Below are positions 1-55,467 of a stretch of DNA of 64,000 nt, piece after piece (the first letter of the stretch is position 1; every line of letters begins with the position of its first letter). The notes under the pieces were generated by a model. That model saw only the letters and a program-made list of their open reading frames with translations. It had not been told where the DNA came from and did no database searches. The stretch is taken from NCBI GenBank assembly GCA_032128875.1, contig JAVLKG010000003.1, positions 65,008 through 129,007 of the forward strand, read 5' to 3'. The translations under genes were made by a program, and so were the position numbers. The stretch comes from Candidatus Melainabacteria bacterium 17Bon1m. GTDB taxonomy: Bacteria; Cyanobacteriota; Vampirovibrionia; Obscuribacterales; Obscuribacteraceae.

Positions 1-164
1 TCGCAGCCGAGAAGGAAACAGCAAGATTGGCTGCTGAAAAGGAAGCAGCACTCGCAGCCGAGAAGGAAACAGCAAGATTGGCTGCTGAAAAGGAAGCAGC
101 ACTCGCAGCCGAGAAGGAAACAGCAAGACTGGCTGCTGAAAAGGAAGCAGCACTCGCAGCCGAG
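1..164 (+). repeat. 51-bp coding tandem repeat, at least 3.2 copies (AAEKETARLAAEKEAAL)
   Basis: Unit tcgcagccgagaaggaaacagcaagattggctgctgaaaaggaagcagcac restarts at 1, 52, 103 and 154 (partial). There is one synonymous change in the third copy. Confidence 0.97.
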
Positions 165-1499
165 CGTTTCAAACCAGCCGCCGGAGCCGAAATCGTCCCT
201 GGAATCAAAGTCGATCAAAAGGTTAGCGTCGAAGGCGTCAACTGGACCGCCGTCGGCAAAGTCGAAGATCGCGTCGTATTTAAGAAGGATAGCGGCATCG
301 AGCGCAGCAAGACTCCACAGGAATTTAAGCCGGGAGATTTCAATCGTGTTGAAATCTCCGGAGAGAAGGGGACTTACTTCCAGCGTAAAGGTTCAAATAC
401 CCTCTATCAATACATTCCTATGGATGGAAAGCAGGGCTTGGAGCCTGGTCCAGGCAATGGTTTCATATTTAAACTGGACGGAGTCGAGGCAAAACCGCTT
501 GGTTCTCCTGTTGTACGTGCGATGTTGAAATCAAGTCTGGCGACTCCGGAAACTAAAGTCGAGCCTGTGGAAGTTGCTAAACCAGCTACAGAGCCAGTGA
601 AGCCTGCGAAGGATGTGCTCGCTCCCCATCAATTGGCTGCAGTAAATGCGCTGGACAAGACTATCGCCGAAGCGCAGAAATACATGGCTGAAAAGCCGGT
701 TGGCGAAGCTGGAACATTCAAGTTTGCCGAACCTCTCAAATTGAATTTCCACGACAAGCCTTTGACCGTCAGTGCGATTGAAGTTGTTGACGGCAAAATG
801 TACCTCAAATCCGCGACAGACGGCATGCGCTACAGCGCTGACGCCTGGCTCAACGCAGTCACTGAAGGCCTGCAAGAACGTTCTGCATCGACCACCATCG
901 CTGCAGCTGATGCGCAAGCCGCCAAACTTTCATTGGAAGCCCTTTCAGCCAGTCCTGAAGCACGCATCGCGTTGATTAAAGCATTGGCTACTAATTTCGC
1001 CGCCGAAACCAAGGCAATAGCTCCTGCCGAAGTAGTTGCCGCAACGACCACCCCCCTGAGAAAAGGCGGCGCCCCAAGTACTGGTGCGCCAACAGGCAAT
1101 CTAGTGGCTTCGGGAGGCGGCACTGAAATTCGCCCGACGGAAGCGGGCGGATATGAAGTGAAATCGCCCAAGCCAGGTGAAACCGCTCTGGCAGGCAAGG
1201 AAGCAGTTGGCAAAGAGGAAATTGCCAAATTGCGCTCCAATATCCTGGAAGACAAAGAAAGAAAATACACCCCCGAAGAGAAAAGACGCGCTTTACAGGT
1301 GCTTGAACTCGCCGAACGCGGCAATGTTGAAGCTCGTGAAGCGTTACGCGGAGCAGTCGGTCGTGGCGGTGGCATAGACAAGGCCACTGGTACGGTAGTC
1401 GGCGTCGGTCTAGTTGTGACCACGCTGGCCGGTTGGTACGCATACGAGCAAATGAAGAGCGCCAGAAATCCCTACGTTGCCCGTGCTTCGGTTAACTAA
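3..1499 (+). CDS. 5'-truncated large protein with Ala/Glu/Lys repeats, one beta-rich module and the shared C-terminal membrane-anchor module
   Basis: The frame is open from the window edge; the TTG at 27 lies inside a repeat and is probably not the true start. The last ~295 aa align by eye with the C-termini of 2499..5777 and 15918..22874. It ends in GTVVGVGLVVTTLAGWYAY. Confidence 0.85.
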   Translation, partial: AAEKETARLAAEKEAALAAEKETARLAAEKEAALAAEKETARLAAEKEAALAAERFKPAAGAEIVPGIKVDQKVSVEGVNWTAVGKVEDRVVFKKDSGIERSKTPQEFKPGDFNRVEISGEKGTYFQRKGSNTLYQYIPMDGKQGLEPGPGNGFIFKLDGVEAKPLGSPVVRAMLKSSLATPETKVEPVEVAKPATEPVKPAKDVLAPHQLAAVNALDKTIAEAQKYMAEKPVGEAGTFKFAEPLKLNFHDKPLTVSAIEVVDGKMYLKSATDGMRYSADAWLNAVTEGLQERSASTTIAAADAQAAKLSLEALSASPEARIALIKALATNFAAETKAIAPAEVVAATTTPLRKGGAPSTGAPTGNLVASGGGTEIRPTEAGGYEVKSPKPGETALAGKEAVGKEEIAKLRSNILEDKERKYTPEEKRRALQVLELAERGNVEAREALRGAVGRGGGIDKATGTVVGVGLVVTTLAGWYAYEQMKSARNPYVARASVN

Positions 1500-2498: not shown

Positions 2499-5400
2499 AT
2501 GGGCGGTGGAAATAGAAAACCTAATGAGCCTGAAAACGAGAAGAATCCATTAGAGCGTCCAGTTAAACCGCCTGCGGAAGCTGAGTTCGATGCAGCGGAC
2601 AATATGCTCGATGAAACAGACAAGGCCGCCGAAAAGAAAAATACCGGCAGCCAAGATGGTCGTGGTGCGGGCGACAATCCGGCAGCACAGAAAGTCGAGC
2701 CCGGTATGGAAGTCAAACTCGGCGGCGAAAAATGGAAGATCGACAACCTTGTTCCTGATAAAGGTCTGGTTGTTCTCAAGCAAGAAGGGCGAGGTCGCGG
2801 CTTTGCAGTGATTGGTGAAATCACGACTCCTGAAGAATTGAAAGAGAAGTATGTTGAAACGGAAGTGGGTGGTCGCAAACTATATTCGCTGAAGGGCGAT
2901 AAGAAAGGAGCTGCATACGAAGTTGTGCCAGGGCTTTCGGGCGAAGGCAAAGTGCAGCTTTTCCCTCGCCACGACTTCAGATTTGTGTCATCTGACGAAA
3001 TCAAAGGCGTGCTTGAAGCACAGCAGCGCGTTGAAAGAGTCCAGCGAATGGCTGATGCACTGCGTTTTCCAAAAGGCAAAGAAGTTAATTACGACTACGA
3101 AAATTGGAAAGTTGCAGAGGTTTTAGGCGACAAAGGGCGAGTGTTGCTGCACAATCCCGAGCATGGCAAAGACTATGCGCTCGTCACCACTAGCGTGACT
3201 AAAGAGCAACTGGAAAAAGACTATACGAAGGTACAAGTTGGCAAAGACGAGCTCTATATCAGCGAAAAGGGGCAGGTCATGCAGCGCTCGCCCATGCCGC
3301 AAAGAGGAGACAAGATTCAGCTCTGGCCAAAACATGAATATGAGGCTCCAACGTTTGGTCAGCTAGATGCTGCAATTGCAGCACAAGAGAAGGCGGCAGC
3401 AAAAGCGGCAAAACCTGCAGAAACGGCCAAGGCTGAGAAACCTGCAGGAGAGAAGAAAGCACCAGGCGCCGCTGAAAGTGTAAAACCCGGAGACCATTTT
3501 GATGTCGACGGTGAAAAACTTGTTGTTGCCGAAGTCGACAAAACCGGCAAATATGCGCTGATTGAAGAAAAACCAGGCAACCGACCGGCCAGAGTGATCA
3601 ATCCAAGCATTGAAGAAATGACGCGTGATTTCAAGCCACTAGAAGTCGGCGACAAAGTCTATTACATAAACGATTCTACAGGCGAAGTTTATGAGCCGAC
3701 CGGAAACGGGCGTGAATTGAAGGAAGTGCAGAATCGTTCGGCTTGGCCTGTTAAAGATTTGAAAGTGGCTGCCAGTGAAGAATTCAAAGATATCTTCAAG
3801 GCCGTAGATGCGAACGACAAAGTTGGTGGTGAGCGTGAAATCAACGGACACAAAGTTAAGGTCACGTCTGATGGACCGATGCGCACGCTCAATATCGACG
3901 GTAAAGACTACAGGCTTTTTGGCAGCAGCTGGTTCAGCCATGATTTCACAGGTCCGAACGGAAAAGTGCTTCCGCATGGCGATGTGAAGATACACGTTTA
4001 TGGAAAAGACCCGAAAGACCTCGCTAAGGTTCAAGCGGAGCTTATTCCCGAACTGATTCGCGCTACGGAACCTGGCGGTCCTCTGCATGGCAAGCTGGGT
4101 GGATTTAAGACTCACGATCCCATGCACATGGTTAAGGATGGATGGGAAAATGTCACGCCTATTAATGATGGGCGCTCGGACAAATTTATGCCTGGGCCGA
4201 CTGGTCAGAACGCCAAGGGATTCACAATATATCCGCGCGACGCTGAAGCTGCTAAGCAAGTCCAGGAATATCTGGGCAAATTTTTAGCTGAACGTGGACT
4301 GCGCATGGACGAGAAAGTCGACAGTAAAAACGTTGGCGATCGATCGCTGGATAAATCATCTAATCGCGTTTCTCTCGAGCGCGATCTCTATGAAGTCGGC
4401 ATCGTAGGCAAGGGAGAACAGGGCGCTCTTCTGCCTGCAGAGCAAGAGGCTGCGATTAAAGAGTTCGCGGAAAAGAAAGTGGCTGCCGGCGCCAAAGGTT
4501 GGGAGCAGTTCAAATCCGCAGCAGATCTTTATACGGATGAGTCTCGAACAATGTTGAAGGATGCTGTTCTCAAACAGCTGAATCAGGAATTCAGGCTTGA
4601 TCCGCGATTGTGCTCGCTGGCTTACGCTGATGCGGTTCCGGGCGAGACTCAACGACGTGTGATGCTGGTAAGCAACGATGGATCGCACAATCACAAAGGC
4701 TCATATTATCTCGATGAATCGAAAGCGAGGAAGGAAAAGGACATCACTTACGATAGCGAGGGCAAGCTGAAGACTGGACTTACAGGACGTCCGGCGATGT
4801 ATGAAATTGCCAAAGTGCTATCCGAGTCTACCGGCAAAGATCTTGATCCGGCGATATTGCGCGCCGAGCAAGTTGCTCGCATCAACGCGATTTTGCCGGT
4901 GGAGGAAGCCGCTGCAGTCAACGCATTGAAGAGTACTTTGAAATATGCCGAGGACGCAGCTTCTCGCAGACTGCCCGGTGAAAATGGGCTGCATAAGCTC
5001 GAACAGCCGTTGAAATTGAACTTAGGCGGCAAGCCTTTGAATATTGGTGCAATCGAAGTTGTCGATGGACAGATTTATTTGAAGTCCGCTGAAGACGGTA
5101 CTAGATATCGAGCACAGCCGTGGCTCGATGCAATCACGGAAGGACTGCGTGAAAGGGCTGCTGCAAAGGACGGCACTTCGTATTCTGCAAAGCAGGCTTT
5201 AGCCCAACTTGAGGGCAATCTCGAAGCACGGGTAGCGCTTGTTAATGCTCTGGCAAAGGAGTATGCGTTCAACACCAGAGTACTGACTCCTCCCGCCACC
5301 GAGAAGGCCGCGGAAATTGTTGCTGGAAAGCCACTTCGCAAGGGCGCTGGCAGCCAGGTATTCAGTGGCAATTTTACTCCTTCAGGAGGCGCTGCTGAAA

Positions 5401-5777
5401 TCGGTGTTACCGAAGGTGGTGGCTACAAGGTTACTGAAAAAGGCGGGGAAAAGGGAGGTGCTGTTCCTCGTCGCTTTGAGGAAATTCCGCGCGAAGAAAT
5501 AGCGCAGATGCGAGAGCGCATCATGAACGAGAAAAAGCTTAGTGCAGAAGATCGAGCCGCCAGCTTGCGCGTTCTCGAGCTTGCGCAAGAAGGCGATCCT
5601 CGTGCTCGCGAGGCCATTGGTAGAGCGATGGCTGAGGTGAAAAGAGGCGGATTTGATAAGACCACCGGCGCTGCTGTTGGCGTAGGAATCGTTGTCTCAG
5701 CTCTGGCAGGCTGGTACGCGTATTACAAGATGCAGCAAGCGCGTGAACCATATGTGCCGAAGGCAGTTGTGCGTTAG
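2499..5777 (+). CDS. large modular protein: three beta-rich repeats, a phosphothreonine-lyase-like domain and the shared C-terminal module
   Basis: 1092-aa ORF with SD-like ggagagg upstream. Motifs GDVKIHV, FK and KGFTIYP; C-terminal GAAVGVGIVVSALAGWYAY. Confidence 0.85.
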   Translation: MGGGNRKPNEPENEKNPLERPVKPPAEAEFDAADNMLDETDKAAEKKNTGSQDGRGAGDNPAAQKVEPGMEVKLGGEKWKIDNLVPDKGLVVLKQEGRGRGFAVIGEITTPEELKEKYVETEVGGRKLYSLKGDKKGAAYEVVPGLSGEGKVQLFPRHDFRFVSSDEIKGVLEAQQRVERVQRMADALRFPKGKEVNYDYENWKVAEVLGDKGRVLLHNPEHGKDYALVTTSVTKEQLEKDYTKVQVGKDELYISEKGQVMQRSPMPQRGDKIQLWPKHEYEAPTFGQLDAAIAAQEKAAAKAAKPAETAKAEKPAGEKKAPGAAESVKPGDHFDVDGEKLVVAEVDKTGKYALIEEKPGNRPARVINPSIEEMTRDFKPLEVGDKVYYINDSTGEVYEPTGNGRELKEVQNRSAWPVKDLKVAASEEFKDIFKAVDANDKVGGEREINGHKVKVTSDGPMRTLNIDGKDYRLFGSSWFSHDFTGPNGKVLPHGDVKIHVYGKDPKDLAKVQAELIPELIRATEPGGPLHGKLGGFKTHDPMHMVKDGWENVTPINDGRSDKFMPGPTGQNAKGFTIYPRDAEAAKQVQEYLGKFLAERGLRMDEKVDSKNVGDRSLDKSSNRVSLERDLYEVGIVGKGEQGALLPAEQEAAIKEFAEKKVAAGAKGWEQFKSAADLYTDESRTMLKDAVLKQLNQEFRLDPRLCSLAYADAVPGETQRRVMLVSNDGSHNHKGSYYLDESKARKEKDITYDSEGKLKTGLTGRPAMYEIAKVLSESTGKDLDPAILRAEQVARINAILPVEEAAAVNALKSTLKYAEDAASRRLPGENGLHKLEQPLKLNLGGKPLNIGAIEVVDGQIYLKSAEDGTRYRAQPWLDAITEGLRERAAAKDGTSYSAKQALAQLEGNLEARVALVNALAKEYAFNTRVLTPPATEKAAEIVAGKPLRKGAGSQVFSGNFTPSGGAAEIGVTEGGGYKVTEKGGEKGGAVPRRFEEIPREEIAQMRERIMNEKKLSAEDRAASLRVLELAQEGDPRAREAIGRAMAEVKRGGFDKTTGAAVGVGIVVSALAGWYAYYKMQQAREPYVPKAVVR

Positions 5778-5800
5778 CATTTTTTGTGAGGACTTTCGAC

Positions 5801-8800
5801 ATGGGCGATACTGCAAAGCCTGGAAAGAAGGAAGACGAGGTCAAACGGCCCCCGACTCCTGAAGAATTGCCGCAACCAGAAGAGCTTGATGATGAGGAAG
5901 GTAGTTTAGCCGATGAGGCTGATGAGCTCTTCGAGGAGCAGGGTGGAGACCCTGAGCGTGCCGGGGAAGGCAAGGGCGAAGCAGGTTTGGAAAAGCTGCA
6001 ATTTCCTCTCAATGTCGTTGAGTCGGAAGAGGATAAGCGCACTGCCAAGTTGCAGGACTTCCTGATTCAGAAATTGGAAAGGGTCTATCTTCCGATTGAA
6101 GGAAAAGACGAAGCGTACATGACTGACCTGCTAGAGCGCATGAAGAAAGAGCGCTCAGGTGAGGTCAATAAAACCAATCCTGGTCATCCTGAGTTTGGCG
6201 CAGCAACTAAAGAGTTGTTTGCCGCTTATAAAAATAATTTGGAAAATCGGCAGCTGAAATCGGTAATGACCGAGTTGTCGACCATGGATCTTGGTTCGCC
6301 TTCTTTGAGTCCTGAGCGCCTGAGAATGGAGAACCATGCCGGCAAGATGCTCCCAGAGACACCGGCGTCATTTCTCGCGAGAATGCGGCGGGGAGATACG
6401 GAATTTAAACTGCAGACGGCCGAAAGCGGAAAAATGGTCGACGTCGATACCAATAAGCTCCCAACTGATGATGTTTTCAAACGCATCCAGTCTGCCGAAG
6501 ATTTCATGACTTGGGCAAACGACAAGGTGATCCTCGATCGCAAATTGCGCTATCACGAGAATCTTTTAGAAGAACGAATCAAGAAAGAGGGCTGGCCGAA
6601 AGAGTGGTTGGAAAGCCCGATGAAACAAACCAATCGAGCTGGTTGGTGTATGGCTGTTATGGAGCGCATGACTGACTCGACAAGCATGGCTCGCTCAATT
6701 GAATCGCTGTACGCTATGCGTACAAAGCAAGGCATGGCCAACTATGGCGATGAAGCCTTAAAAAATCTTCCGAAGCATGTTCATGTTGAAACTGAAAAGC
6801 GCGACGGCAAAGAGTACGTCAAGCGGGTTACGTTTGACCAGCCGCTTGATCTTGATCTGCGCAATCCCGACTTTCTCAAGAATCGCCAGGGTGAAGTTAA
6901 CTGGCAGACCAAGCATGGACGCGAAATCGACAAGCTCGTAATGAAGAGCGATATGGCTCACGCGAATATCAAAAACTGGCTTTTCCAGGGCGATATCAAA
7001 GTGCCCGGTATGCAGGTCATTGTCGATAAAAAGACCAATGAAATTCTCGGCATGCACAAGAAAGATGTGCTGAAAGACCCGGCAAAAATGGAGATGATTC
7101 TTCAGGAAGCAGGCAAAAAACGTTCTGATGTGACAATTGAAGATGCTGATATGATGCGCTGCCGCATCAATGCAGGCGAAGAACGTGGTGAAAGTGGGGA
7201 GTTGAAATTCGTCACGATAGATTATGGCGTGCAGTATGGATTGACTCCGCCCATCAATTACCACAACCTTTTCATGTCGCCAATCGGCAAGCCCAGCCGT
7301 CCTTCTGCAGAAGGAGAAGCTGACGGTCTGCAGCGTTTCAAGCCAGATGAGATTGTAATCGGTAGAGATGGTCATGGCGAAGATAAGCCGATGCCGGCGA
7401 AAGATGTCGCGCTCTATGCTCAATGCGAAGACTTGAAACGTGCGCTGGATGTTGGTGTTTCGGTGGTAATGGATGCGTCGATGATTCTTGGTGTGGGCGC
7501 CGCCTTCCAGGGTGTACGCCTGGTCAGAGCAGCACACGGCGCTATGGATTTGATTCGTGCCGGACAAGCCGGTATGGCGGTCGCCAACGGTGTTGCATCG
7601 AAAGAAATGGCGGCGGTGGGCTACAGAATGATCCGCCACGGTGTTAAGGACTTCGCGCTGGGTGCCTCCGCTTTCATTAATAACGACACTGTACAGCAGT
7701 ACCGTGGATATTATTTTCTCGGTCATGCTGCTTCCGGGTTGCCCGGCGTCAATCGCATCACAGGCGCTATAGCTGGGCGTTTTGGTGGTGCTCGAGACGT
7801 AGAAACTCTTAAGTCTTTGAAGGACGCAGCTTTGGCTGACGGCAAAACTCTGAAAGAAGTTCGATCGTTGGGGCTTTCGGAAGGCGCTTTCTATTCAGCA
7901 ACAAAGCCGCTTGCAGAAAAGGGCTTCAAATACAGCAATTATGCCTTTGCAGGAATACTCAGTCATGAGTTGTGGAAACAGTCTGAGTTCATCAATGGTA
8001 TCGGTTCTGCCGACGGTTTTGCGATTGCTAAAGACCGTATGAAAGGCGTCGATACGCAAGGCAAGAAGCGTACGCCCGAAGAAGAACGCGTTCGTCAAGA
8101 TGAAGTGCATCGTACTGCCAGCCGTATTTTGGAAGACTACAGCAAGAGCACGACTGGAAATGGCGCCGAAGTAAAATCGATTGCAGATCGGACAAAGGCA
8201 CTGTTGGAGCCACCTCCCAAGGAATTGAAAGGCGCCGAGCTGGATGCCTGGAATGCAAAACGCAAGGCGGATATTGAACAGTTCCAAAAAGATTTGCGTG
8301 CCAATTATTTGCAGTTTGACGGAAAGCGTGTCGCTGATCTGGAGCGTCAGCGTGCAGAGAAAACGCCTTCGAATGCAACAGATGTCGGCAAACTGCAAGA
8401 CGACCCGGTGTACGTTCAAAGTGTGAAGCTGGAAGGCGATAAACTCGCTGCAGCAGTCGAGGCGTACCGAGCCAAAGAGGAAGAGTACAAAAAACTCGGC
8501 GAAGCAAAAGATGACGCGGAAAGAGCTCAGCGCAGAGATGATTTAGCCAAACTGAAATTTCAAAAAGAGTTTGCCCAGGACCGTTATGACAGCGCTGCTT
8601 CTGGTCAAACTTTGGCTGTGCGAGGATTGGAAACATCAGATCCAAAGTTGGACAACGGTGCGCCGGAGCGAAAGTTTGCCGACCGTCTGGATGCGCAGAA
8701 AGCCGCTGCTCTAGCTTACATGCTGCTGTATTCCGCAGACGGCAAAGAGCTGCCTGCTGATGGCGTTCTTGCAAAAGATTCAATGACAATTCCTGGTTGG

Positions 8801-11800
8801 AAGGTAGAGAAAACCTGGCAAGAATCAAACGGGGAGACAAGTGTCACTCGCTCTGCGACGATTGAAGGAAAAGAAAGAAAAATCGATCAGAAGTTGACTG
8901 TGGACGATCTGACAAAGCTTCTCAATCCCGATATGTCGGCAGAAGTTTCTGCGATGAAGCGCATAACTACTGCAGAGGCGTTAGATCGGCTGCGCATGAT
9001 TCCGCCTGAGATTCATGCTTCCGTACTCAAGCGCATTGCCTTGGACCCGAGCGCTGATCCCAAAGATAGAAGCAGAGCCGTGGCGGATCTCGGTGCTGTT
9101 GTTGTTCAGCTGGAATTGGATGAAGCAAGAAGAATGACTTCGGGTGTGCCGATGTCCGCTCAGCTTGCTGCAGCCGGCGACCGCTTCGGCAATACTTCTA
9201 AGGATCTCAAGGAAGTGCTTGCAAAGATCGCTTCTGATTCGAATGAAAAGCAGCAAGATGTGCGCGCCATGGCCACCTATATGTCTTATGCGCTCGATAA
9301 GCGAAGCAGCAAGTGGGATGACAGCGATCGCGATTTCTTCGAGAAAACGATATTGCAGAATCCACCGACTATGTCTTATGACCAGTTGCTCGGATATTTG
9401 AAACCGCTTGCCGGTATGCAGCATGGCGACAAGATGTCGCAGAACCTCGACGAGAAGGACCTTGCCGGTTGGGAAAGACGTGCCAGGGCTCTTGTCGCTC
9501 TGGAGAAGCTTTGCAATCCGAAAGATGGTTATGCGCCAAATGCTGGCTTCAGTCAAAAGGAAATCAATGAGAGGCTTGCCCAGTGCGCGCATCCATCGCG
9601 TCCGGCAACCACTGCTTTTGTGATGAATGCGATGTTGGATAACGTTAGGCAAGATGGTGTGCCTCGCACTCGCCTCGAACAGTTCACGCTGGATAATCCG
9701 CGTGCGGCGATGGATTTCCGTCGCAAGTCTCTAGATCTTTTGAAGACTTCGTTTGGCGGCGACGTCAAAAACGATCCGAATGCCAGAGCTGAAGTTACCG
9801 CCCGCATTCAGCTGATGGAACAATTGCCGGAGTTTCTCAAATCAAAAGAAATTCCTGAAGCATTTAAAGCCGAACTGCAAGGAATGAGGCAGGAAGCTGG
9901 ACGCGTGCTAAAGGCCACGTTGTGCGCTGCCGATGAAATGGAAGTTCGCTTTATGCGCGCTGCTCTTCGAGATGTGTTGTCCACCCCCAATGCTAGCAAG
10001 GAAAAAATTGCAGAAGCTCAAGCGGCAGTGGACAAAGCTGAGCGTGACATGATTTTGGCCAAGGGTTGTCAGCTCAATCCTGACAGTCCGCAGGTGATCG
10101 AGCTGTCCGCTAAGATGCGGGCCGCAAAAGATAATCCGGAAGAATTGAAGCGCTTGAAAGACGAGTGGATCAATTCCTGGGGTGTTTCCTTGTACGGTCC
10201 GCAGAAATTGGACGCTTCTGGGAAGCCACTACCAGACCTGTCTATGCTGAATGGCATCGCATACGAAGATGCTGAAATGCGGAAGGCGGCAATTCGTGCT
10301 CTTGGTGAATTCGGTGCTGGAGATGAAGACAGTAGGCGAATTTTGATTGAGCGCGCCACGCCTCCAAAAAATGAAGCGCTCAGTGAGTGTCGCTTTGAGA
10401 ATGTTGCAGACGTAAGATTGGCTGCATTGAATGCCTTGCAGAAATCGATGGCACCGCTGAGTTTTTCCCGCTTGTGCAACAGCTTGGTGGAGAAAGAACC
10501 ATCCCCTGGCGTGGCGACAAAAATGCGGATGAATACCTGGTATTCAGATATAGCGCTCGACCCTCAGTCAGTCGGATATCAGGATTTATCTGATAGGGCG
10601 ACCGAATTCATCAAGCCGTTTAAAAACCTGGATGAGATCAAAGCCAGGTATCACAGTGAAACCGGTGGGCATTACTGGCTTTCCGGGCAGAAGCTGGGGG
10701 CTGATCTGGCTAAAGCTGCCGACCAATACAACTGGTTGACGGCTGGTGTCACCAACCTTTTTTCAGATACTCGGGTGAAAACTAAAGAGAGGGAGGCTCT
10801 TCTTGATACATATAAAACCTATCGCGAGAAGATCAATACCGACATCATTGCCAAATTCACGAAGGGCGACGCAGAAGGGCGGAAGTTTGCTCGCGAGATG
10901 TGTTTTGGTATTTTGGCGGCACCGCCTGAGGGATTCAACGATAACGCTGCAACCAAAAAATCTCAGGACGACAATGCTTATTCAAATCAGCGTCTCTATG
11001 CGTCCAAGGAAATTTTGCACGACATTCAAATGCAGGCGGCAAAAGCCTTGTCCGAAGCGTGTAAGGCCGGCAATCCGGAGCGCGATCAGACGGCAGCTTA
11101 CATAATTCAGTCGCTCAAAATGACGACTGACTATGCCGTGAAGCGAGAGCTTTTGAAAGGGTTGACTCATCTCAGCAGCAATAAAGTCGGCGGTGCCACA
11201 GACAAGACCGAAAGTGAAACGCTGGCATTTGATCCAGGTGTTGGCTCGAAGTTCGTTCTTGATGCAATAACAGACTCGATTGGCGACAGTGCTCAGAATC
11301 CGCAGAAGTCACAGTTTCAGCTTGAGTGTGCAAATTATTTGCGCCAGGTTATGACTTCAGACGTAATGCGTAAAACCAATATTTATGCCGAATTAGAAGG
11401 TAAAGCAAATCACAAAGATTGCCCTTCTGCGCTCCGTCATGCACTCTTGGATATCATTGCTGACAGGCGCGATCGCGTCATGCCGGTTTGGGGCGCTTGC
11501 CGTGTGGATTCTGTGAATGCGACAGTCGAGGATCGCATGCAGTTGCTCAGAGAGGCTGCGGCTGATGTGAAACCGGGTCTGCTGGAAGGTACACCAGCAC
11601 AGCCTGCCGCTAATGGTAGTGAGTTAGAAGCACGTGTTCCCAGCGCCGTGTACAAGATTTTTGCGGCCGCTAAGGACAGCTCTATTCCACTAGGGGATCC
11701 TCGCATTGATGCTTTGAAGGCGCTCGCCTCCGGGAATGTGAAGCCCGGCGAAAGACAAACAGACGAACGGGTCCGGCTTGCCGCAGCATTTGCTTTGTAT

Positions 11801-14800
11801 AAGACAGGCAGCAATTTCGAAACGGCCAAGCAATCGCTGGATGCGATTGTTGACGTGGCAGTCAACGGCAATCGCCCAGGTGTCAGGCGTGATGCTATGG
11901 ATATTATTGCCAATATGAAGGGTGATTATCTGCGTGAAGCAGAGCGCCTTTTGAATGCGTCCAGAGCCAAGACTGAGGATGCTTCGGGACAACCATATCC
12001 GAAGAAAGACGTTGATATGGCGGAAGCTGCTCGTCTTGGAATGCTCGGTAAAGTGCTTGTGGCGCAGAATAGAAACAAAGAAGCCGAGGCGCCGTTGCGT
12101 GCTGCGTATAATCTTTACCTTGGTAAACCCGTTGATACGCCGCTGCATACAGGTGCTAATTATCCCGAAGAAGACGCCCGTGCTCTCAGTGCGTTAAGAG
12201 GTGACAGGCGCTTCCGCGAGGTTGCCGATGCAGTTGAAAATCTGCAGCGTTTGCGTCCTGATTCGCATCTGGCAATGTCAGCGAATTGGGCTCGCTACAA
12301 TGCCTTTGGGCCGAATCACCCAGAGTCTGTGAACGCACATTTTAATAGCGGTTTGCAACAGAAAAAGTATGCACTGGAAAGGCAGCAAAAAGAAGGCATT
12401 AGCGGATTTGTTGATTTGTTCAATGCGCGAAAAGAATTTGTTAGTGCCTTTAATGGCGCTGTCAGCGGTTTCTACCCAATGCCTCTGGATGTTCGGCTCA
12501 AGAGCCTTGATGAAATTGGCGACATTTCATTGCGCTTAGCGCCGATGGAGCATCCATTAGAAATTGCTATCGGTTATGTGCCGGCCGGCTATAAGGACGC
12601 CGCTTACGACCTTGATCGTGCTCAAAGGGCTTACAACCAAAGCCTGGAAATGAAGGAGAAGTACAAGGTTGGTGCAGCGGATCTGGCGCAAGCTCATTTC
12701 AATTTGGCTCGGGTCGCTGAGATGAAGGCAAAGCTTTTGCCGGGGCAGCAGGAATCAGGCATGACGACTGCTCGAGCGGAGGTCGATAAGGCGCTGCAAA
12801 TTGCCCGAGGAGCGAAAGATAATCTCGTGCTTTCCGACCAATTGCGAAATGCTGCTCAGTTCTACAAACGAAACGGCGATGCGCAGAAGAGTGCGCAGTA
12901 TGAAAAGGAAGCGTTAGACATAGTCGAGAAGCGTGTTGGAAAGGGCTCTCTGGGCGATAAGACTGCAGAACAGGTTGAAGAAACTATTGCTTCCTTCATG
13001 GCTTCCCTTGGTGCAGACCATCCGGTTGTGGCGAAACTTCTGACCGATGCTTCTACTCGTTATTTGCAGCTGGGTAAGCTTGATATGGCAGAGAAGCATG
13101 CTGATTCGGCACTGGCCATTTACAAGGCTAAACCGCCGGAAGATGCCAGCACTGTAATCGATGCTTTGAATGCCAGGCATAATGCGGTCTTTCGATATCG
13201 TACAAATGAAAAGAATGCCAGCTGCGTTGATTCACTTACATGGCTGAAGACCTTGCAAGAAGGGCAGGCTAAAGGAGAAAACACGCCAGCGCTGCAGCGC
13301 ACCCGGGCCAATTTGTCCGAGTGTTTGGCGGCCCGAGCCGGAGTTAATGCCGAAGCCGGCAATACAGCAGCCGCACGCAGTGATTTTGCTTTGCTGTTAG
13401 CGAATGAAAACGTATCGAAAGATCAAAAACTCTCTGAAGAAGCCAAGGCAAGGCTCGCGCACGTTGCGCAGCGCTTAGAGAATCAAGCTTATGGACTTCG
13501 CAATCAGAATAAATTCAACGAAGCCGGCGAGCTTTTCACTTTTGCGCTATCCTGTCGCCTGCAGGAAAATGGTGGCAAACTGCCTGAAAAGCTTGAGAAG
13601 CAGTACAAAGACCTCGTCAACAATTACGAAGGCTATCTGGGAGGCCAACTTAAAGCGCTTAAAAATACCGGCAAGATGGAGGATGCCAGCAGAGCTATCG
13701 AGACTTGGGTCCAGCTATCGAGGCAGTTAAATGGTGGGCGTGTTTCGGATGACGTCCTCAAGAAGCTCAATATTGTTCATTCCGAATACGCAAATCACAT
13801 CAACAAGACAGTGCCACTTGATGCTGATTACAATGCCGAAAAAATGCGGACAGCCGAGCCGGTTTTCCAATCTGTGTTGGCTGCGCAAAGAGAGAGACTT
13901 CTTGTTTTGAAAGAGCAAGGGCGAAAAGACGAAACAGTGGACATGGACTTGCAGATAAGAGAATTGCGGGTCGTCAATTACGCTCTTATGAAACACTATC
14001 AAAGCGAAAAGCAATTTGCTAAGTCTGATGCAACGTCAGAGAGAAATATTGAGACAGCTCGTTTGGTAGCACCAAGCAGTTATGAAACTGCCGGTCTGGT
14101 TGCGCAAAAGATGGATAATTATCTTGCTCAGGGCAAGCGAGAGCTGGCTTTGGCAGAAGTGGACAAGCACATTGATAAAGTTGCCGATACTTTAGGCACC
14201 GCAGATGGTGTTGCTGGTGTGGCTGAATTAATGCGATTGGCTTCGATTGTTGAATGCAATTCTAAACAGCCAGGTGTGACTGCGGATGTGGCGGCCAAAG
14301 CGATAGCTGCGCTCAATCGCAATGTGCAGAAACTGCCCAAGGATAAGCAAGTCGAGGCTTTGAACAATCTCAATGCCGAAGTGCTTAATGCAATGAATGG
14401 TGGTATCAATGAGCTCGAGGCTTTCACCAGAGACCCGCGGTTTGAAAAGCGCACGGATGCCGAGAAAGAACAGCATAAAGAGTCTATCAAGCGTCTTCTT
14501 GAATTGAAGAATCAGACTCATTCTGCCGCTGATGGCGCATTAAAGCTATCAGTTGAAAAATGGAGTTCGTCTTTGGCAGGAGCCGGTAAAGAAGAACCTT
14601 CGCAGCACTTGCGTGATTTAATCGACAATTATTGCCAGTCCGGACGCTACGCAGAGGGCGCCAAGTTTGTTCGCGATCACATCAAGACTGTGATGGAGAA
14701 AGGTACTCCAGAGCAGGCGGCAGATGCTTTGGCTTCTCAGTTGCGCGCGCTCAGTTTTTCCAATGCAACTCCGGAGCAAATCGCTGACATTTCTGCCGGT

Positions 14801-15895
14801 TTGTGTGGAGACGTTATCGCAATGATCGATCAAATGCCAGAAGGAAAGCGCGATCAGATGTATTCCATATTGGGCTCGGAAGCCGCACGAGGAATGCATA
14901 ATAACGTTCTTTCTTTGCGCTCGCCCGGATTTGGTGAGAATACGGACAACGCAAAACGCGAAGCTGGAGCTAAGAAGCTGCAAGAAGTCTATGATCGTGT
15001 TGCTGAGAAAATCAGCCCCAGCCTGCTTAAGGAGATCGATAAGTTCGAAAAAGGCGCAGATAAAGAAAACCCTTGCAAAGCTTTTACTGCGATGTTCGAA
15101 ATGCAGGTTGCTCAAGGCAAAATGAAAGAAGCTAATGAACTCGCTGGCAGACACATGGCTGCTTTGCTGAGTTCTGGCAGGTTGGAGCAAGTCAATGTAT
15201 TAATGCGAGATATTGGAGGCAATTTCAACTCTGAGGATAGAGCCTCTCACGGTGAGTTTCTCCTGAATGCAAAAAGCGTTCTGGACAAACATCTAGCTTC
15301 CGTTCCTCAAGAGCAGAAGCAAGATGTCCTCGCTCGTGTCGCTCCTCTACTCTCGGAAAGAATGCAAACGGAAGCGCGCATGGTTAGTGCGCATGACGCA
15401 ACTGCTTCTCAAAAGCTGCAAGCTGGAGCAAAGGAAGTTGCCATAACGGCGAAAGGCGCATTGCAGGCGCGTTTGTCCAAGGCCGTTGCGGCTAAGGACG
15501 ATGCCTCCATTGTCGATGCCTATGGCAGCCTGACTTCAGCTTTCGTGGCTATGGAAGATTGGGCCGAGCTGCAGAAGAGTACGGAAGCTTTGGTTAAGTC
15601 GATGAATGAGAATGGCAACACTGAGCGCGCAACGTTTACTGTTCAAAACGTTTTGATGAATGCTCTGCGCAATGACAGCCAGTCGAAGGTGGGTCCGACA
15701 GCGCTGGCGGCGTTGCAAATGATTGAAACTCAAGTCGCTAAGCTCGACAAAGCAGAAGATCGCAGCCGCCAATTCCGGGCACTGGCTGAAGCGTACGATC
15801 ATTTCTCGAGTTATGTTAATGACCAGGAGATCTCTAAGCAGATGAAAGAACGGTCGGCAAATCTGAAAAAACGTGAGCTTGCCGGGTCGAGATAA
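5801..15895 (+). CDS. giant HEAT-repeat and TPR-repeat protein (~3360 aa)
   Basis: 10-kb ORF; ATG at 5801 follows gagga. HEAT-like: MRKAAIRALGEFG, DVRLAALNALQK, ERVRLAAAFALYK. TPR-like: LGMLGKVLVAQNRNKEAEAPLRAA, LGADHPVVAKLLTDASTRYLQLGKLDMAEKHADSALAIY. Confidence 0.9.
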   Translation: MGDTAKPGKKEDEVKRPPTPEELPQPEELDDEEGSLADEADELFEEQGGDPERAGEGKGEAGLEKLQFPLNVVESEEDKRTAKLQDFLIQKLERVYLPIEGKDEAYMTDLLERMKKERSGEVNKTNPGHPEFGAATKELFAAYKNNLENRQLKSVMTELSTMDLGSPSLSPERLRMENHAGKMLPETPASFLARMRRGDTEFKLQTAESGKMVDVDTNKLPTDDVFKRIQSAEDFMTWANDKVILDRKLRYHENLLEERIKKEGWPKEWLESPMKQTNRAGWCMAVMERMTDSTSMARSIESLYAMRTKQGMANYGDEALKNLPKHVHVETEKRDGKEYVKRVTFDQPLDLDLRNPDFLKNRQGEVNWQTKHGREIDKLVMKSDMAHANIKNWLFQGDIKVPGMQVIVDKKTNEILGMHKKDVLKDPAKMEMILQEAGKKRSDVTIEDADMMRCRINAGEERGESGELKFVTIDYGVQYGLTPPINYHNLFMSPIGKPSRPSAEGEADGLQRFKPDEIVIGRDGHGEDKPMPAKDVALYAQCEDLKRALDVGVSVVMDASMILGVGAAFQGVRLVRAAHGAMDLIRAGQAGMAVANGVASKEMAAVGYRMIRHGVKDFALGASAFINNDTVQQYRGYYFLGHAASGLPGVNRITGAIAGRFGGARDVETLKSLKDAALADGKTLKEVRSLGLSEGAFYSATKPLAEKGFKYSNYAFAGILSHELWKQSEFINGIGSADGFAIAKDRMKGVDTQGKKRTPEEERVRQDEVHRTASRILEDYSKSTTGNGAEVKSIADRTKALLEPPPKELKGAELDAWNAKRKADIEQFQKDLRANYLQFDGKRVADLERQRAEKTPSNATDVGKLQDDPVYVQSVKLEGDKLAAAVEAYRAKEEEYKKLGEAKDDAERAQRRDDLAKLKFQKEFAQDRYDSAASGQTLAVRGLETSDPKLDNGAPERKFADRLDAQKAAALAYMLLYSADGKELPADGVLAKDSMTIPGWKVEKTWQESNGETSVTRSATIEGKERKIDQKLTVDDLTKLLNPDMSAEVSAMKRITTAEALDRLRMIPPEIHASVLKRIALDPSADPKDRSRAVADLGAVVVQLELDEARRMTSGVPMSAQLAAAGDRFGNTSKDLKEVLAKIASDSNEKQQDVRAMATYMSYALDKRSSKWDDSDRDFFEKTILQNPPTMSYDQLLGYLKPLAGMQHGDKMSQNLDEKDLAGWERRARALVALEKLCNPKDGYAPNAGFSQKEINERLAQCAHPSRPATTAFVMNAMLDNVRQDGVPRTRLEQFTLDNPRAAMDFRRKSLDLLKTSFGGDVKNDPNARAEVTARIQLMEQLPEFLKSKEIPEAFKAELQGMRQEAGRVLKATLCAADEMEVRFMRAALRDVLSTPNASKEKIAEAQAAVDKAERDMILAKGCQLNPDSPQVIELSAKMRAAKDNPEELKRLKDEWINSWGVSLYGPQKLDASGKPLPDLSMLNGIAYEDAEMRKAAIRALGEFGAGDEDSRRILIERATPPKNEALSECRFENVADVRLAALNALQKSMAPLSFSRLCNSLVEKEPSPGVATKMRMNTWYSDIALDPQSVGYQDLSDRATEFIKPFKNLDEIKARYHSETGGHYWLSGQKLGADLAKAADQYNWLTAGVTNLFSDTRVKTKEREALLDTYKTYREKINTDIIAKFTKGDAEGRKFAREMCFGILAAPPEGFNDNAATKKSQDDNAYSNQRLYASKEILHDIQMQAAKALSEACKAGNPERDQTAAYIIQSLKMTTDYAVKRELLKGLTHLSSNKVGGATDKTESETLAFDPGVGSKFVLDAITDSIGDSAQNPQKSQFQLECANYLRQVMTSDVMRKTNIYAELEGKANHKDCPSALRHALLDIIADRRDRVMPVWGACRVDSVNATVEDRMQLLREAAADVKPGLLEGTPAQPAANGSELEARVPSAVYKIFAAAKDSSIPLGDPRIDALKALASGNVKPGERQTDERVRLAAAFALYKTGSNFETAKQSLDAIVDVAVNGNRPGVRRDAMDIIANMKGDYLREAERLLNASRAKTEDASGQPYPKKDVDMAEAARLGMLGKVLVAQNRNKEAEAPLRAAYNLYLGKPVDTPLHTGANYPEEDARALSALRGDRRFREVADAVENLQRLRPDSHLAMSANWARYNAFGPNHPESVNAHFNSGLQQKKYALERQQKEGISGFVDLFNARKEFVSAFNGAVSGFYPMPLDVRLKSLDEIGDISLRLAPMEHPLEIAIGYVPAGYKDAAYDLDRAQRAYNQSLEMKEKYKVGAADLAQAHFNLARVAEMKAKLLPGQQESGMTTARAEVDKALQIARGAKDNLVLSDQLRNAAQFYKRNGDAQKSAQYEKEALDIVEKRVGKGSLGDKTAEQVEETIASFMASLGADHPVVAKLLTDASTRYLQLGKLDMAEKHADSALAIYKAKPPEDASTVIDALNARHNAVFRYRTNEKNASCVDSLTWLKTLQEGQAKGENTPALQRTRANLSECLAARAGVNAEAGNTAAARSDFALLLANENVSKDQKLSEEAKARLAHVAQRLENQAYGLRNQNKFNEAGELFTFALSCRLQENGGKLPEKLEKQYKDLVNNYEGYLGGQLKALKNTGKMEDASRAIETWVQLSRQLNGGRVSDDVLKKLNIVHSEYANHINKTVPLDADYNAEKMRTAEPVFQSVLAAQRERLLVLKEQGRKDETVDMDLQIRELRVVNYALMKHYQSEKQFAKSDATSERNIETARLVAPSSYETAGLVAQKMDNYLAQGKRELALAEVDKHIDKVADTLGTADGVAGVAELMRLASIVECNSKQPGVTADVAAKAIAALNRNVQKLPKDKQVEALNNLNAEVLNAMNGGINELEAFTRDPRFEKRTDAEKEQHKESIKRLLELKNQTHSAADGALKLSVEKWSSSLAGAGKEEPSQHLRDLIDNYCQSGRYAEGAKFVRDHIKTVMEKGTPEQAADALASQLRALSFSNATPEQIADISAGLCGDVIAMIDQMPEGKRDQMYSILGSEAARGMHNNVLSLRSPGFGENTDNAKREAGAKKLQEVYDRVAEKISPSLLKEIDKFEKGADKENPCKAFTAMFEMQVAQGKMKEANELAGRHMAALLSSGRLEQVNVLMRDIGGNFNSEDRASHGEFLLNAKSVLDKHLASVPQEQKQDVLARVAPLLSERMQTEARMVSAHDATASQKLQAGAKEVAITAKGALQARLSKAVAAKDDASIVDAYGSLTSAFVAMEDWAELQKSTEALVKSMNENGNTERATFTVQNVLMNALRNDSQSKVGPTALAALQMIETQVAKLDKAEDRSRQFRALAEAYDHFSSYVNDQEISKQMKERSANLKKRELAGSR

Positions 15896-15917: not shown

Positions 15918-18900
15918 TTAGCGGACGTCTGCGCGTCCGATGTAGGGGCTTCTGGCGCTGTTCATCTGCTCGTAGGCATACCAACCGGCAAGAGTAGTCA
16001 CCACCATTCCCATGCCTACGAAGCTTCCGGCCGCTTTGTCTATGCCTGCGCCGCGACCAACCGCTCCTCGAAGAGCCTCGCGTGCCTCTTTATGACCGCG
16101 CTCTGCCAATTCGAGAACCTGCAGCGCACGTCGTTTTTGTTCCGGCGTGTATTTGTTTTCCCGGTCTTCCAAAATTTTGGATCTCAATCGAGCAATATCT
16201 TCCTTCGGCATTTCCGCCCCGGCTCGAATTTCTCCTTCTGCTGGCTTCTCGCTCGCAACTTCATATCCGCCTGCTTCTGTGGAGCGTATTTCGGTGCTGC
16301 CTCCGGCCGCTACGAGCGGAGCGCCGCTTGTGGCAGAGACGCCTGGCGTTGTTGTTCCACCTGCTGCGCCGCCCTTTCTGAGTGGAGTAACAGCCGGTGC
16401 GGCGACAGCGACTGTTTCCGCTCCGGCAGGTGTGACTGCTTTTGACTCGAGAGCGAAATTGGAGGCAAGCGCTTTGATGATTGAGACTCGAGCATCGATG
16501 CTATTTGCGATCGACTCGAGTGAGACTTTTGCTGCTTGTGCATCGGCTGCTGGAATAGCAGTTGAGTTGGCGCGCTCTTCCAAGCCGTCTTTCACTGCGT
16601 TTAGCCAGCCTTCAGTGCTATAGCGTTTTCCATCTTTGGCGGCCTTGAGATAGAGTTTTCCTTCAACAATGTCTATACCACTGACTGTAAGCGGCTTGTC
16701 TTTGAAGTTGAGCGTAATTGGTTCGGCGAATTTGACCGTTCCTCCCTCTGCTACTGCCTTTTCGGCTAAGTATTTTTGCGCATCGGCAATCGTGAAATCA
16801 ATTGCGTTGGAAGCCGCTAGTTGATGCGGAGCCAGTCCTACGCGCACTACTCCGGCGTTTCCTACTGAGTATGTTTCACGCTCTTCGATGGTTTTGGCTA
16901 GTTTTGGTTTTTTCTCGGGATTGAAAAGAAAGCGGTTGCTCAGTTCATCTGTAGCGGTTGCAGCGGATGCACCATTGTTGATTCGATATGCTGCAACCAC
17001 TGCCGGGGCGCGATCTGTTCCGCTGAAGTCTTGTACGAAGACTCTGCCGTTTTTTCCTTTTACTCTTTCAATTTCAGCAAGTACTTGGTTTATTTGTTCT
17101 TGAGTCATCAGATTTGGGTCTTTGACTGGCAAATGTTTGTACTCGACGTTGTTGAGTTCGCACCACTGTTTTTGTGCTTCGTTGGGCTTTTGTCCCAGAT
17201 CGATGATGGTAGTGACGCCCATCTCTTTTAGTGATTCCAGCGAATCTACTAAAGGAAGCTTTTTGCTGTCGCTCGGCTTGGAGCCGACAAGCAGGTCAGC
17301 GCTCACCTCGGTGAAGCGGTTGATTCCTGGCACTGTCGTAATTTCCTTGAGTGGATGCTCAACGCTGAACAGCTTCTCTTTCACAACTTGATCGATAGAT
17401 TCTTTGAAGCGAGTTGCGTCTGCTTGAGGATATTGGGAAGCCAGTTCTTGCGCACGGTATGTCAGAAGCTGGCGCATGATTTCCACTTTGGCTTTTTGAA
17501 ATTGCGACGCTTCAGCCAGACTTGGGTCGAGAACAATTGAGAGCGTTTTATCCTCCACCATGCGCGTTCCGGTTGGAGTGCCGAATTCAACGTTCACTCT
17601 GATGCCTTCCAAGCCGAGATTGGCATTTGTTTTCTGGTGTTGCTCGAGGAAATTCTGCAGTCCTTCTTTGAGCATGGCTCGCAGTTCTTGAGGTTTGTTG
17701 CCTTCACCTGGTTTGAAGGCGCTTTCCATGCTTTCGGAATATTCTTCGGCCGCTCTTGAATGGACTGACTTCAGCAGTTTGGAGACAGTTTCTCTTTGTG
17801 CACGGGGGTCGTTGATGTCTTTGAAATCAGATGCTGCGTTTTCCAGTTCAAGCTGACCTTTAGATTCAATGTGCGCTTTGGGTACGCCAAGATAGTTAGC
17901 CAGGTCGCTCAGCAGTCGAGCTGTGGTGTTTGAGCGAATGTGAGACATGAAGAGGGAGGAAACAACTTTGGCACCATTCACTTTTTCGCCTGGTTTATAT
18001 GTTTCGGCGTTCCAGTCCGGAGCGCCAAGAATTCTTTCGGCTTCTTTGACGGTGAACTCTCCTGTGCTTTCCGGCAGACCTTCCGTTATCTCGGGGTGCC
18101 TTGCAAGCAGACGTGAAATTTTGGCGCGCTGCGGAGAACTCGCTGCTTTCGAGTAGGCATCTTGATATTCAGCCTGAGCAATGATTTCCACGCCTGCCAG
18201 ATTTCCAGCCTCCGTTGCGACTTTTATGCCCTCTGCGTATCCGAACAAGTTTGCGATGGCGACTTTTGCTCCATTCGCTTTCAGTTCTTGCATCTTTGGA
18301 ATATTCTTCTGTGCTTCTGTGCCGCTGTATATTCCATCGTTGAGTTGAACGAAGCAAAGCCCGCTCCCCTTCATAGCCTTGGCTTGTTCGAAGGTGATGA
18401 ATTTTCCGTCGAACTCTTTGCCTTCCATGCCATTTGCGAGTCTGTACAAATCAATGGAAAGATGATTGCTGTTGACCTTTTCGTCGACGATGAAGAAAGT
18501 GTTCTCTTTCGTCGCACCTAGCCTTTTGGCAAGCGAGTCCTGCAATCCGTGTGCTTGTTTGATCAAGTCGTCATATCTGCCGACGTCGAGAGAGGCATTT
18601 GCCACCATTGCGTGAAGTTGAACGGGTCCACCCAGGTTGGCTTGTTTTTGCGCGAAATACAGCAACGACCCTGCTTCGACCCGTGCTCTGTTTTCGTTGT
18701 TTTTCTGCTGCGCGAGGTTTTTCAGCAGCTTGAATTCGTTTTCGGTAGTGACACCAGGGGGGTGGTTGGTAGCGTCTCCTTTCAGCTCCGCTGGACGTCC
18801 TGCTCGCTTTGCTTCTTCGAGCATTAGATTCAATTGTTGTTTTGCCTGCGCCGGGTCTCCTGTCGCTTCTGCAACGGCTAGATGCTTGTAATTCAAGCCT

Positions 18901-55306: not shown

Positions 55307-55467
55307 GACTGTTCTCCTTATCATGAGTATTCCGATCGGGCACAGCTGTCGCCCAATGCGGTGAGTTACGTAAACGACATTTCACGCCCGATCGCGCGGC
55401 TTGCTTGCCACCTGCGACTCGTGCGTGAGATTCAGAGTTGGATTCAAATTTGCGATATCGAGAACTC

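Follow-up and report, generated by a model that had tools for sequence, protein, structure and literature searches.

P0001, a modular protein of 1092 amino acids (aa) encoded in a stretch of 64,000 nucleotides (nt; hereafter the window) of contig JAVLKG010000003.1 of Candidatus Melainabacteria bacterium 17Bon1m, a cyanobacterium that is uncultured and does not photosynthesise, carries a domain that is very likely a homologue of the phosphoserine/phosphothreonine lyases with an intact catalytic set. The domain occupies aa ~443-644, with a probable extension to ~798, and taken together the analyses make it probable that it is an active, catalytically competent member of the OspF/SpvC-LanKC/LanL superfamily. 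Phosphothreonine lyases are known in two settings: as injected effectors that permanently disable mitogen-activated protein kinases (MAPKs) of a host, and as dehydratase domains in lanthipeptide synthesis. The P0001 domain is part of neither a lanthipeptide synthetase nor a type III effector, and its target most likely lies inside the producing cell, with the cell's own phosphoproteins as candidates. A third setting for these enzymes would thereby be added, without a kinase, cyclase or secretion-system partner, in large modular membrane-tethered proteins and with fusions to FHA domains. Enzymes of this kind are known, but the open-access literature searched contains no description of the clade, its context or its lineage-specific expansion; in it, no paper joins phosphothreonine lyase with Melainabacteria, Vampirovibrionia or Obscuribacter, and nothing relevant joins Obscuribacterales with effectors or phosphothreonine lyase with FHA.

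Fold, kinship and catalytic residues of the lyase-like domain

The lyase gene (2499..5777, + strand) is the second complete + strand gene of the window in the list of open reading frames (ORFs). Its full-length homologues P0002 (86% identity) and P0003 (about 59-64%) share with it an MGGG N-terminus. An earlier note on this DNA had claimed four lyase-type motifs between 3900 and 4400, and all four are found there in the claimed order, at aa 492-629 of the protein encoded by ORF 2499-5777 (+): PHGDVKIHVYG (aa 492-502, nt 3972-4004), GGFKTHD (aa 534-540, nt 4098-4118), GQNAKGFTIYPRD (aa 569-581, nt 4203-4241) and GDRSLDKSSNRVSLERD (aa 613-629, nt 4335-4385), all on the + strand. The OspF/SpvC motifs with which they had been compared agree with SpvC as translated from plasmid pSLT (GDKFHIS, WKVTD, GAQFTLY, SD and SYR).

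An AlphaFold2 model of aa 455-644, built from a 31-row alignment, had a mean predicted local distance difference test score (pLDDT) of 95.1 and a predicted template modelling score of 0.89. The fold comparison that the earlier note had proposed placed SpvC/OspF and LanKC-type lyases at the top: Foldseek against the Protein Data Bank (PDB) gave VirA/SpvC 3bo6 (E 2.6e-4) and ThurKC 8sam (4e-4) as the best matches, followed by SpvC 2q8y, OspF 3i0u, CuvL, PneKC and SalKC, with TM-scores of 0.36-0.50. A scan of 48,161 representative chains, independent of Foldseek, returned ThurKC (9.8), CuvL (9.5), HopA1 (8.3), LxmY (8.1), SalKC (7.6), eIF4E5 (7.6) and SpvC (6.8), with the next chain at 5.9. The domain model thus shares its fold with the lyase domains solved for ThurKC, CuvL, SalKC and PneKC. 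The appearance of an eIF4E among the matches is expected and is no contradiction, since the sections of PMC4159009 drawn on here already describe eIF4E as having the lyase fold. In the model, K497/H499, K537 and K573-Y578 sit on three core strands, as their SpvC counterparts would, and the next strand has R623 at its beginning and R628 at its end.

The domain core (aa 443-644, nt 3825..4430, + strand) is thus delineated by the model, the structural matches, the SpvC profile alignment, the language model and the RamC_N bridge, the last three of which are described below. It is followed by an alpha/beta region with helices (aa 645-798, nt 4431..4892, + strand), which is kept along with the core in ~15 close homologues whose matches cover query aa ~445-794. 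In a model of the full-length protein (37-row alignment, mean pLDDT 82.7), the lyase structural alignments cover ~455-791 and reach the last SpvC residue (241), as judged by ranges only. The extension to aa ~798 may therefore complete the lyase domain, and its helix may pack back onto the core.

Whole P0001 has no match in Pfam, NCBIfam or a sequence search of all PDB chains, and the family profile found only two chance matches among the PDB sequences (an antibody heavy chain, E 0.46, and Syd, E 1.7). Relatives did emerge when HMMER was run exhaustively against 1.84 billion representatives, with E <= 1e-3 for 87 proteins, <= 1e-10 for 43 and <= 1e-30 for 16. The region of aa ~445-655 is present in 67 of 91 collected proteins, which range from 344 to 4612 aa; its position varies, and one protein has two copies. 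The lyase-like domain is a conserved mobile unit, and the motifs are its conserved core and no chance strings. Conservation was counted in a 62-row alignment, from which five fragments with <140 matched positions were left out. R623 is kept in 61 rows, K497, K537, T538, K573 and Y578 in 60 each, H499 and D540 in 57 each, Q570 in 55, R628 in 53 (with Lys in another 3) and D629 in 50, while an acidic residue stands at 613/614 in 57. The catalytic residue set as such is kept in 53-61 of the 62 homologues.

Four routes at the sequence level lead from this family to the known lyases. Firstly, the family profile was aligned by hhalign with a profile of 26 SpvC sequences, taken from 93 natural SpvC homologues that all carry PF03536. 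The alignment pairs K497/H499 with K104/H106, K537 with K136, D540 with D139 and the FTIY ending in Y578 with the FTLY ending in Y158, in accordance with the catalytic match of K-x-H, K and Y that had been proposed from the motifs. Its score of 29.3 was reached by none of 150 column shuffles (mean 13.7, sd 2.9, max 23.2), and a reversed-profile control scored 14.1. P0001 thus has counterparts of the catalytic K104, H106, K136 and Y158 of SpvC, which are conserved in 57-60 of 62 rows and paired in an alignment that scored above 150 of 150 shuffles. Secondly, the RamC_N profile gave weak matches in 4 of 31 family segments (best E 0.0017). Thirdly, the three nearest clusters in an ESM Atlas feature search (0.90, 0.89 and 0.87) carry RamC_N and/or VRP3. 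The fourth and most telling route is provided by bridging sequences. Segments from six small-genome class-mates match the 62-row family HMM with E-values from 1e-15 to 2e-31, and all six also exceed the 27-bit cut-off of RamC_N (2.6e-30, 6.6e-20, 2.2e-12, 1.8e-13, 7.4e-10 and 2e-07). They read W-K-x-H, (W/F)-K-T, Q-x-G-K-A-F-T-I-Y-P and G-D-R...S-G-R. A search of 401 genomes of the phylum with PF25816 recovered the identical 19 genomes, at identical places, as the family profile did. Because the bridging segments match both the family HMM and RamC_N, the P0001 domain can be placed by transitive homology as a diverged member of the RamC_N/OspF superfamily. The subfamily is missed by the current Pfam and NCBIfam models, and a new profile would improve annotation.

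The pairing with SpvC assigns putative roles to most of the conserved residues. In SpvC, according to the parts of PMC4159009 used here, K136 acts as base and H106 as acid, the carbanion is stabilised by K104 and Y158, and the phosphate is held by K104, R148, R213 and R220. For VenL, the portion of PMC8341899 consulted gives K80 as the base and K51, H53, D137 and R149 as required, W50 and K103 as required in class III/IV domains, the only ones that conserve them, and Y108 and R156 as dispensable. The K-x-H motif K497-I-H499 (3987..3995, + strand) corresponds in the hhalign alignment to K104, which contacts enolate and phosphate, and to the general acid H106. In K537-T-H-D540 (4107..4118, + strand), K537 is paired with the SpvC base K136 (K80 of VenL) and D540 with D139, and in K573-G-F-T-I-Y578 (4215..4232, + strand), Y578 is paired with Y158. 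SpvC R148 has no aligned arginine in P0001, and K573 falls in an insertion beside the R148 position. As K573 precedes Y578 by five residues, the spacing of K103 and Y108 in VenL, it may be the counterpart of VenL K103. The segment N611-V-G-D614 ... S621-N-R623-V-S-L-E-R628-D629 (4329..4385, + strand) holds a candidate acidic partner of the histidine and candidate phosphate-binding arginines: R623/R628 would correspond to R213/R220 of SpvC (R149/R156 of VenL), and the acidic residue at 613/614 to D201 (D137 of VenL). With the VenL set in mind, K497, H499, K537, K573 and R623 are present in 57-61 of 62 rows and an acidic residue is plausible at 613/614, a pairing based on the order of the motifs, the alignment with SpvC and the W-K-x-H reading of the bridging sequences.

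By homology, K537 would take the alpha-proton from a phosphothreonine or phosphoserine residue of a substrate protein, the enolate would be stabilised by K497 and Y578, and H499, held by the acidic residue at 613/614, would protonate the leaving phosphate, with K573, R623 and R628 holding the phosphate. The product would be dehydrobutyrine or dehydroalanine, which makes re-phosphorylation impossible.

Distribution, domain partners and a proposed model of cellular function

The lyase-like domain was found in 33 loci of GTDB-species genomes, nearly all of them titled as Obscuribacterales or Obscuribacter metagenome-assembled genomes. Within the Obscuribacterales it occurs in 45 of 107 genomes (17 of the 39 of high quality), at 1-7 places per genome and in open frames of up to 11,971 aa, and the genome studied here has one copy. 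Among 401 genomes of the phylum, the domain was detected in that same genome and, within a single sister family whose genomes are small (1.7-2.2 Mb), in 19 of 169, with 0 of 231 others positive. The clade is diverged, lineage-restricted and expanded in the Obscuribacterales, often in giant proteins.

The partners of the domain in other proteins give an indication of function. FHA domains are phosphothreonine-binding modules. In a Pfam search they scored above cut-off in 4 of 66 other family proteins (P0040, 57.9 bits; P0087, 43.3; P0028, 28.1; P0068, 21.9), and both of the giant class-mate proteins examined contain one. The repeated fusion with FHA thus supports a phosphothreonine-directed function of the lyase family independently. 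No Pkinase or LanC domain was found by Pfam in 85 related proteins or in the two giant proteins of the class-mates. One of these giants has 2862 aa with two RamC_N domains and an FHA domain (L049:2018-10603, G319), and the other has 2183 aa with LysM, FHA and two RamC_N domains (L050:5496-12044, G033); LysM and EF-hand traces were seen in one giant, and a Mu-type transposase gene (L049:11870-13810) adjoins one of the giant genes. In two further relatives, P0057 and P0063, an N-terminal LysM is followed by a hydrophobic helix near aa 200-225 and then by the lyase-like domain, which would be cytoplasmic if the LysM faces the cell wall. A hydrophobic stretch lies within the last 70 residues of 17 of 67 family proteins.

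In P0001 itself, the lyase-like domain is preceded by three repeats of ~90-100 aa each (aa ~64-164, 189-277 and 327-417; nt 2688..3749, + strand), each consisting of a small beta-barrel and then a helix. These repeats went undetected by self-BLAST, and structure comparison gave a weak Tudor/KOW-like assignment; they are likely binding modules. Behind the lyase extension follows a C-terminal module (aa 799-1092, nt 4893..5774, + strand), delimited by BLASTP against two paralogues in the window, for which Pfam and a PDB sequence search returned no known family and the ESM Atlas no usable match. Its one hydrophobic helix (aa ~1056-1079, nt 5664-5735) stops 13 residues short of the protein's end; hydropathy peaks there at 1.52 (aa 1056), and the model has a helix at 1058-1079. 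The helix looks like a tail anchor. Neither hydropathy nor the full-length model revealed an N-terminal signal peptide or hydrophobic segment.

The genome has 125 places with Hanks-type kinase domains (16.5 per Mb) and at least 7 FHA domains. Given the tail anchor, the lack of a signal peptide and of secretion markers (see below), and a genome rich in kinases and FHA domains, the cytoplasmic face of the producer's membrane is the favoured location. These considerations suggest a model in which the lyase, tethered to the membrane of the producer and facing its cytoplasm, would irreversibly erase phospho-marks written by the many Hanks-type kinases, and in which, in the relatives, the fused FHA domain would find the phosphothreonine substrates. 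More tentatively, and with considerable doubt, the Obscuribacterales and their small-genome, gut-type relatives may use irreversible 'eliminylation' for internal signalling or quality control, by means of membrane-tethered, often giant lyases that are guided by FHA domains or beta-barrels. If this were true, phosphothreonine on the cell's own Hanks-kinase substrates would become dehydrobutyrine, and proteins would be retired permanently, unlike the reset brought about by a phosphatase. It would be the first use of eliminylation chemistry outside host attack and the synthesis of peptide natural products. A lyase acting on the cell's own proteins would give bacteria a means of erasing Ser/Thr phosphorylation irreversibly and a natural way of acquiring dehydro-amino acids in their proteins, and if the enzymes were instead exported, the gut-type relatives would become candidates for modulating host signalling.

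Gene cluster and alternative explanations

Several results weigh against an active, internally acting lyase. The hhalign probability is low (4% with 31 rows; 20%, P 0.0011, with 62 rows), and the P0001 domain itself reaches 13.6 bits with RamC_N against a cut-off of 27 bits (E 0.048, profile positions 83-114), which at the scale of the genome is a non-significant E of 0.79. VRP3 (PF03536) was matched neither by whole P0001 (E up to 0.01) nor by 31 domain segments (E up to 1). The tryptophan before the K-x-H motif, W50 in VenL, is replaced by Val496, and valine stands there in 40 of 62 rows. When the hhalign alignment is forced to extend, it sets N611-V612 on SpvC D201-V202 with zero confidence, and the arginine columns are placed likewise. 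The hydropathy of the anchor (1.52) is borderline. LysM was found in 2, annexin (above cut-off) in 2 and leucine-rich repeats (LRR) in 1 of 66 family proteins, and proteins with the C-terminal module carry DSP-phosphatase or AvrB_AvrC domains, a combination that would equally fit proteins directed against other cells.

The gene cluster bears on this last point. The lyase gene starts with its ATG 4 nt past the stop of the upstream ORF, and the downstream ORF begins 8 nt past its own stop. The upstream ORF (1571-2494, + strand) encodes 307 aa of no recognisable family, and the downstream gene (5786..15895, + strand) encodes 3369 aa with only TPR and HEAT traces; both belong to the same operon as the lyase gene, and the gaps between neighbouring long + strand ORFs are 72, 4 and 8 bp. 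The C-terminal module has three copies in the 7.55-Mb genome, all of them in this cluster and each behind a different head (coiled-coil repeats, lyase or dual-specificity phosphatase). The first paralogue (3..1499, + strand; at most 553 aa open, as its frame is open at the 5' end of the window) has the module behind a coiled-coil repeat region, with 45% identity over 304 aa to P0001 aa 798-1091. The other, convergent and of 2318 aa (15918..22874, - strand; 39% identity, P0001 aa 799-1092), joins it to a dual-specificity phosphatase domain (PTP-SAK, PF22784, 6.3e-07, 30.0 bits; Tc-R-P, PF22785, 1.2e-06, 29.4 bits; cut-offs 27). The phosphatase is of the 'Swiss Army Knife'/polymorphic-toxin type, a PRTase-CE trace in the same protein is sub-threshold, and a counterpart of 2308 aa (P0018) exists elsewhere. 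The arrangement looks like a cassette system that places phospho-signalling enzymes on one shared anchor. Elsewhere, in other genomes, the module is found fused to DSP-PTPase (P0018), AvrB_AvrC (P0030, 25.9 bits against 23.2) or FHA.

Near the closest orthologue the lyase gene recurs and the 3369-aa neighbour recurs weakly, while the other cluster genes do not; in L039/L002, the lyase orthologue has near it a weak homologue of the neighbour (27% identity over 363 aa). The genes that flank the cluster are ordinary chromosomal housekeeping genes. A dedicated partner kinase was considered and rejected, as 359,123 bases of 33 family loci contained 4 kinase matches, against ~5.9 expected from the genome density. 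A Hanks kinase of 672 aa (G000:C3:59129-61147) lies ~8.4 kb upstream of the lyase gene, consistent with background density, and another kinase lies near one P0001 orthologue.

The most serious alternative, though still an unlikely one, is that the lyase is a delivered effector or toxin, one of several interchangeable enzymatic heads on a common C-terminal module for export or for insertion into the membrane of another cell, where it would, like OspF and SpvC, inactivate kinases or phosphoproteins of a eukaryotic host, prey or rival bacterium. Injected effectors are indeed the nearest characterised enzymes of the free-standing type, and the three paralogues with different heads on one module, the DSP-PTPase (P0018) and AvrB_AvrC (P0030) partners of that module, the annexin, LRR and LysM domains in family members, and the 1 to 7 copies per genome with shuffled architectures would all fit. 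The earlier note had likewise called the enzyme 'stand-alone effector-like'. The first part holds in the sense that no kinase or cyclase accompanies it, although the domain sits in a multidomain protein; the second part is unsupported, as P0001 has no signal peptide, carries a probable C-terminal membrane anchor and comes from a genome in which no marker of type III, IV or VI secretion was found. Searches for VirB4, TssC and FHIPEP, the export markers chosen, gave no match in this genome, which at 93.2% completeness offers no proof of absence, and the FHIPEP (SctV/FlhA) search was positive in 4 of 14 genomes in a control. PADLOC matched none of six cluster proteins, and no polymorphic-toxin trafficking domain was found. 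Moreover, the neighbours are housekeeping genes, and the FHA fusions together with the 125 kinase domains point to an ample internal substrate pool. An internally acting lyase therefore remains the preferred reading.

A catalytically dead or repurposed module, which would keep the fold, as eIF4E does, to read phosphothreonine, phosphoserine or another phospho-ligand, is highly improbable. Non-catalytic forms do arise, because P0026 and P0027 have lost K497, H499, K537 and K573 with the fold-defining residues kept; these two look degenerate and are likely inactive derivatives. The missing tryptophan of the class III/IV W-K-x-H motif also speaks for such a reader. Yet the candidates for base, acid, enolate stabilisation and phosphate binding are kept in 53-61 of 62 rows, and binding alone would not require the whole set. 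Moreover, eIF4E is without equivalents of K136 and H106 in the account given in the relevant part of PMC4159009, whereas the P0001 family has both.

That the domain is the dehydratase half of a lanthipeptide-like pathway, with a separately encoded kinase phosphorylating the precursor, is scarcely credible despite the lanthipeptide synthetase lyase domains being the best structural matches, since, in agreement with the adjacent kinase or cyclase that the earlier note had reported absent, Pfam found no Pkinase, APH-like or LanC domain in P0001 or its operon neighbours, kinases are not enriched near family members, the intergenic gaps leave no room for a precursor gene (no systematic precursor search was made), and the domain sits in giant, tail-anchored, repeat-rich proteins.

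Some further features of the region were recorded. An ORF of 632 aa without a known family (G000:C3:63146-66506, which includes the window start; L038:16139-19499) overlaps the 550-aa module ORF by ~190 nt in another frame, and the pair may represent either one frameshifted gene or two separate ones. In another genome (L042), the N-terminal part of the 632-aa ORF has a homologue immediately upstream of the lyase domain, encoded on the same strand and probably within that protein. Farther along the window, the unannotated ORFs include a 163-aa AAA_33/Zeta-toxin-like kinase (41788-42279, - strand) and a DUF6932 protein (39740-40543, - strand), which may form a toxin-antitoxin-like pair. The ORF at 54332-55324 (- strand) encodes a nicotianamine-synthase-like protein (PF03059, E 6.2e-17).

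Comparison with known lyase systems

The relatives by fold include eIF4E and BLES03, and the consulted text of PMC4159009 describes eIF4E as being without the catalytic lysine and histidine that the P0001 family has. The LanY/HopA1-like lyases of class V lanthipeptide and thioamitide pathways (LxmY 9dk1/9dk2, HopA1 4rsw) are likewise distinct. In the excerpt of PMC9486802 relied on here, LanY and HopA1 are without equivalents of K104 and H106, with an arginine in place of K104, whereas the P0001 family keeps K497 in 60 and H499 in 57 of 62 rows. Since it keeps the pair that those enzymes lack, the P0001 family is of the OspF/LanKC type.

The effectors OspF, SpvC, HopAI1 and VirA (PF03536, VRP3) share with P0001 the paired residues K104/H106 and K497/H499, K136 and K537, D139 and D540, and Y158 and Y578. 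Like OspF and SpvC, the P0001 lyase is free of kinase and cyclase domains and therefore would act on proteins phosphorylated by other enzymes. In contrast to the effectors, however, P0001 has no VRP3 match and no arginine aligned with R148, whose place may be taken by a LanL-type lysine, and unrelated repeats stand where they have an N-terminal MAPK-docking region. The effectors are soluble proteins of ~240 aa secreted by the type III route, whereas P0001 has ~1100 aa, is probably membrane-anchored and belongs to a genome in which no type III export gate was found.

In lanthipeptide synthetases of class III/IV, the lyase domains (RamC_N) have a K-x-H motif, a base lysine, a lysine five residues before the tyrosine, an acidic residue and an arginine, for which P0001 has candidate counterparts, and class-mate relatives of the P0001 family pass the RamC_N cut-off. 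P0001 differs in having valine instead of tryptophan before K-x-H, in its own RamC_N score of 13.6 against 27 bits, and in that no kinase or cyclase domain follows and, judging by the intergenic gaps, no precursor peptide gene accompanies it. Instead of forming part of a synthetase, its lyase sits within a putatively tail-anchored protein that also has beta-barrel repeats, and FHA recurs in the family. In structure and residue pattern, the P0001 domain is closest to the lyases of the lanthipeptide-synthetase type.

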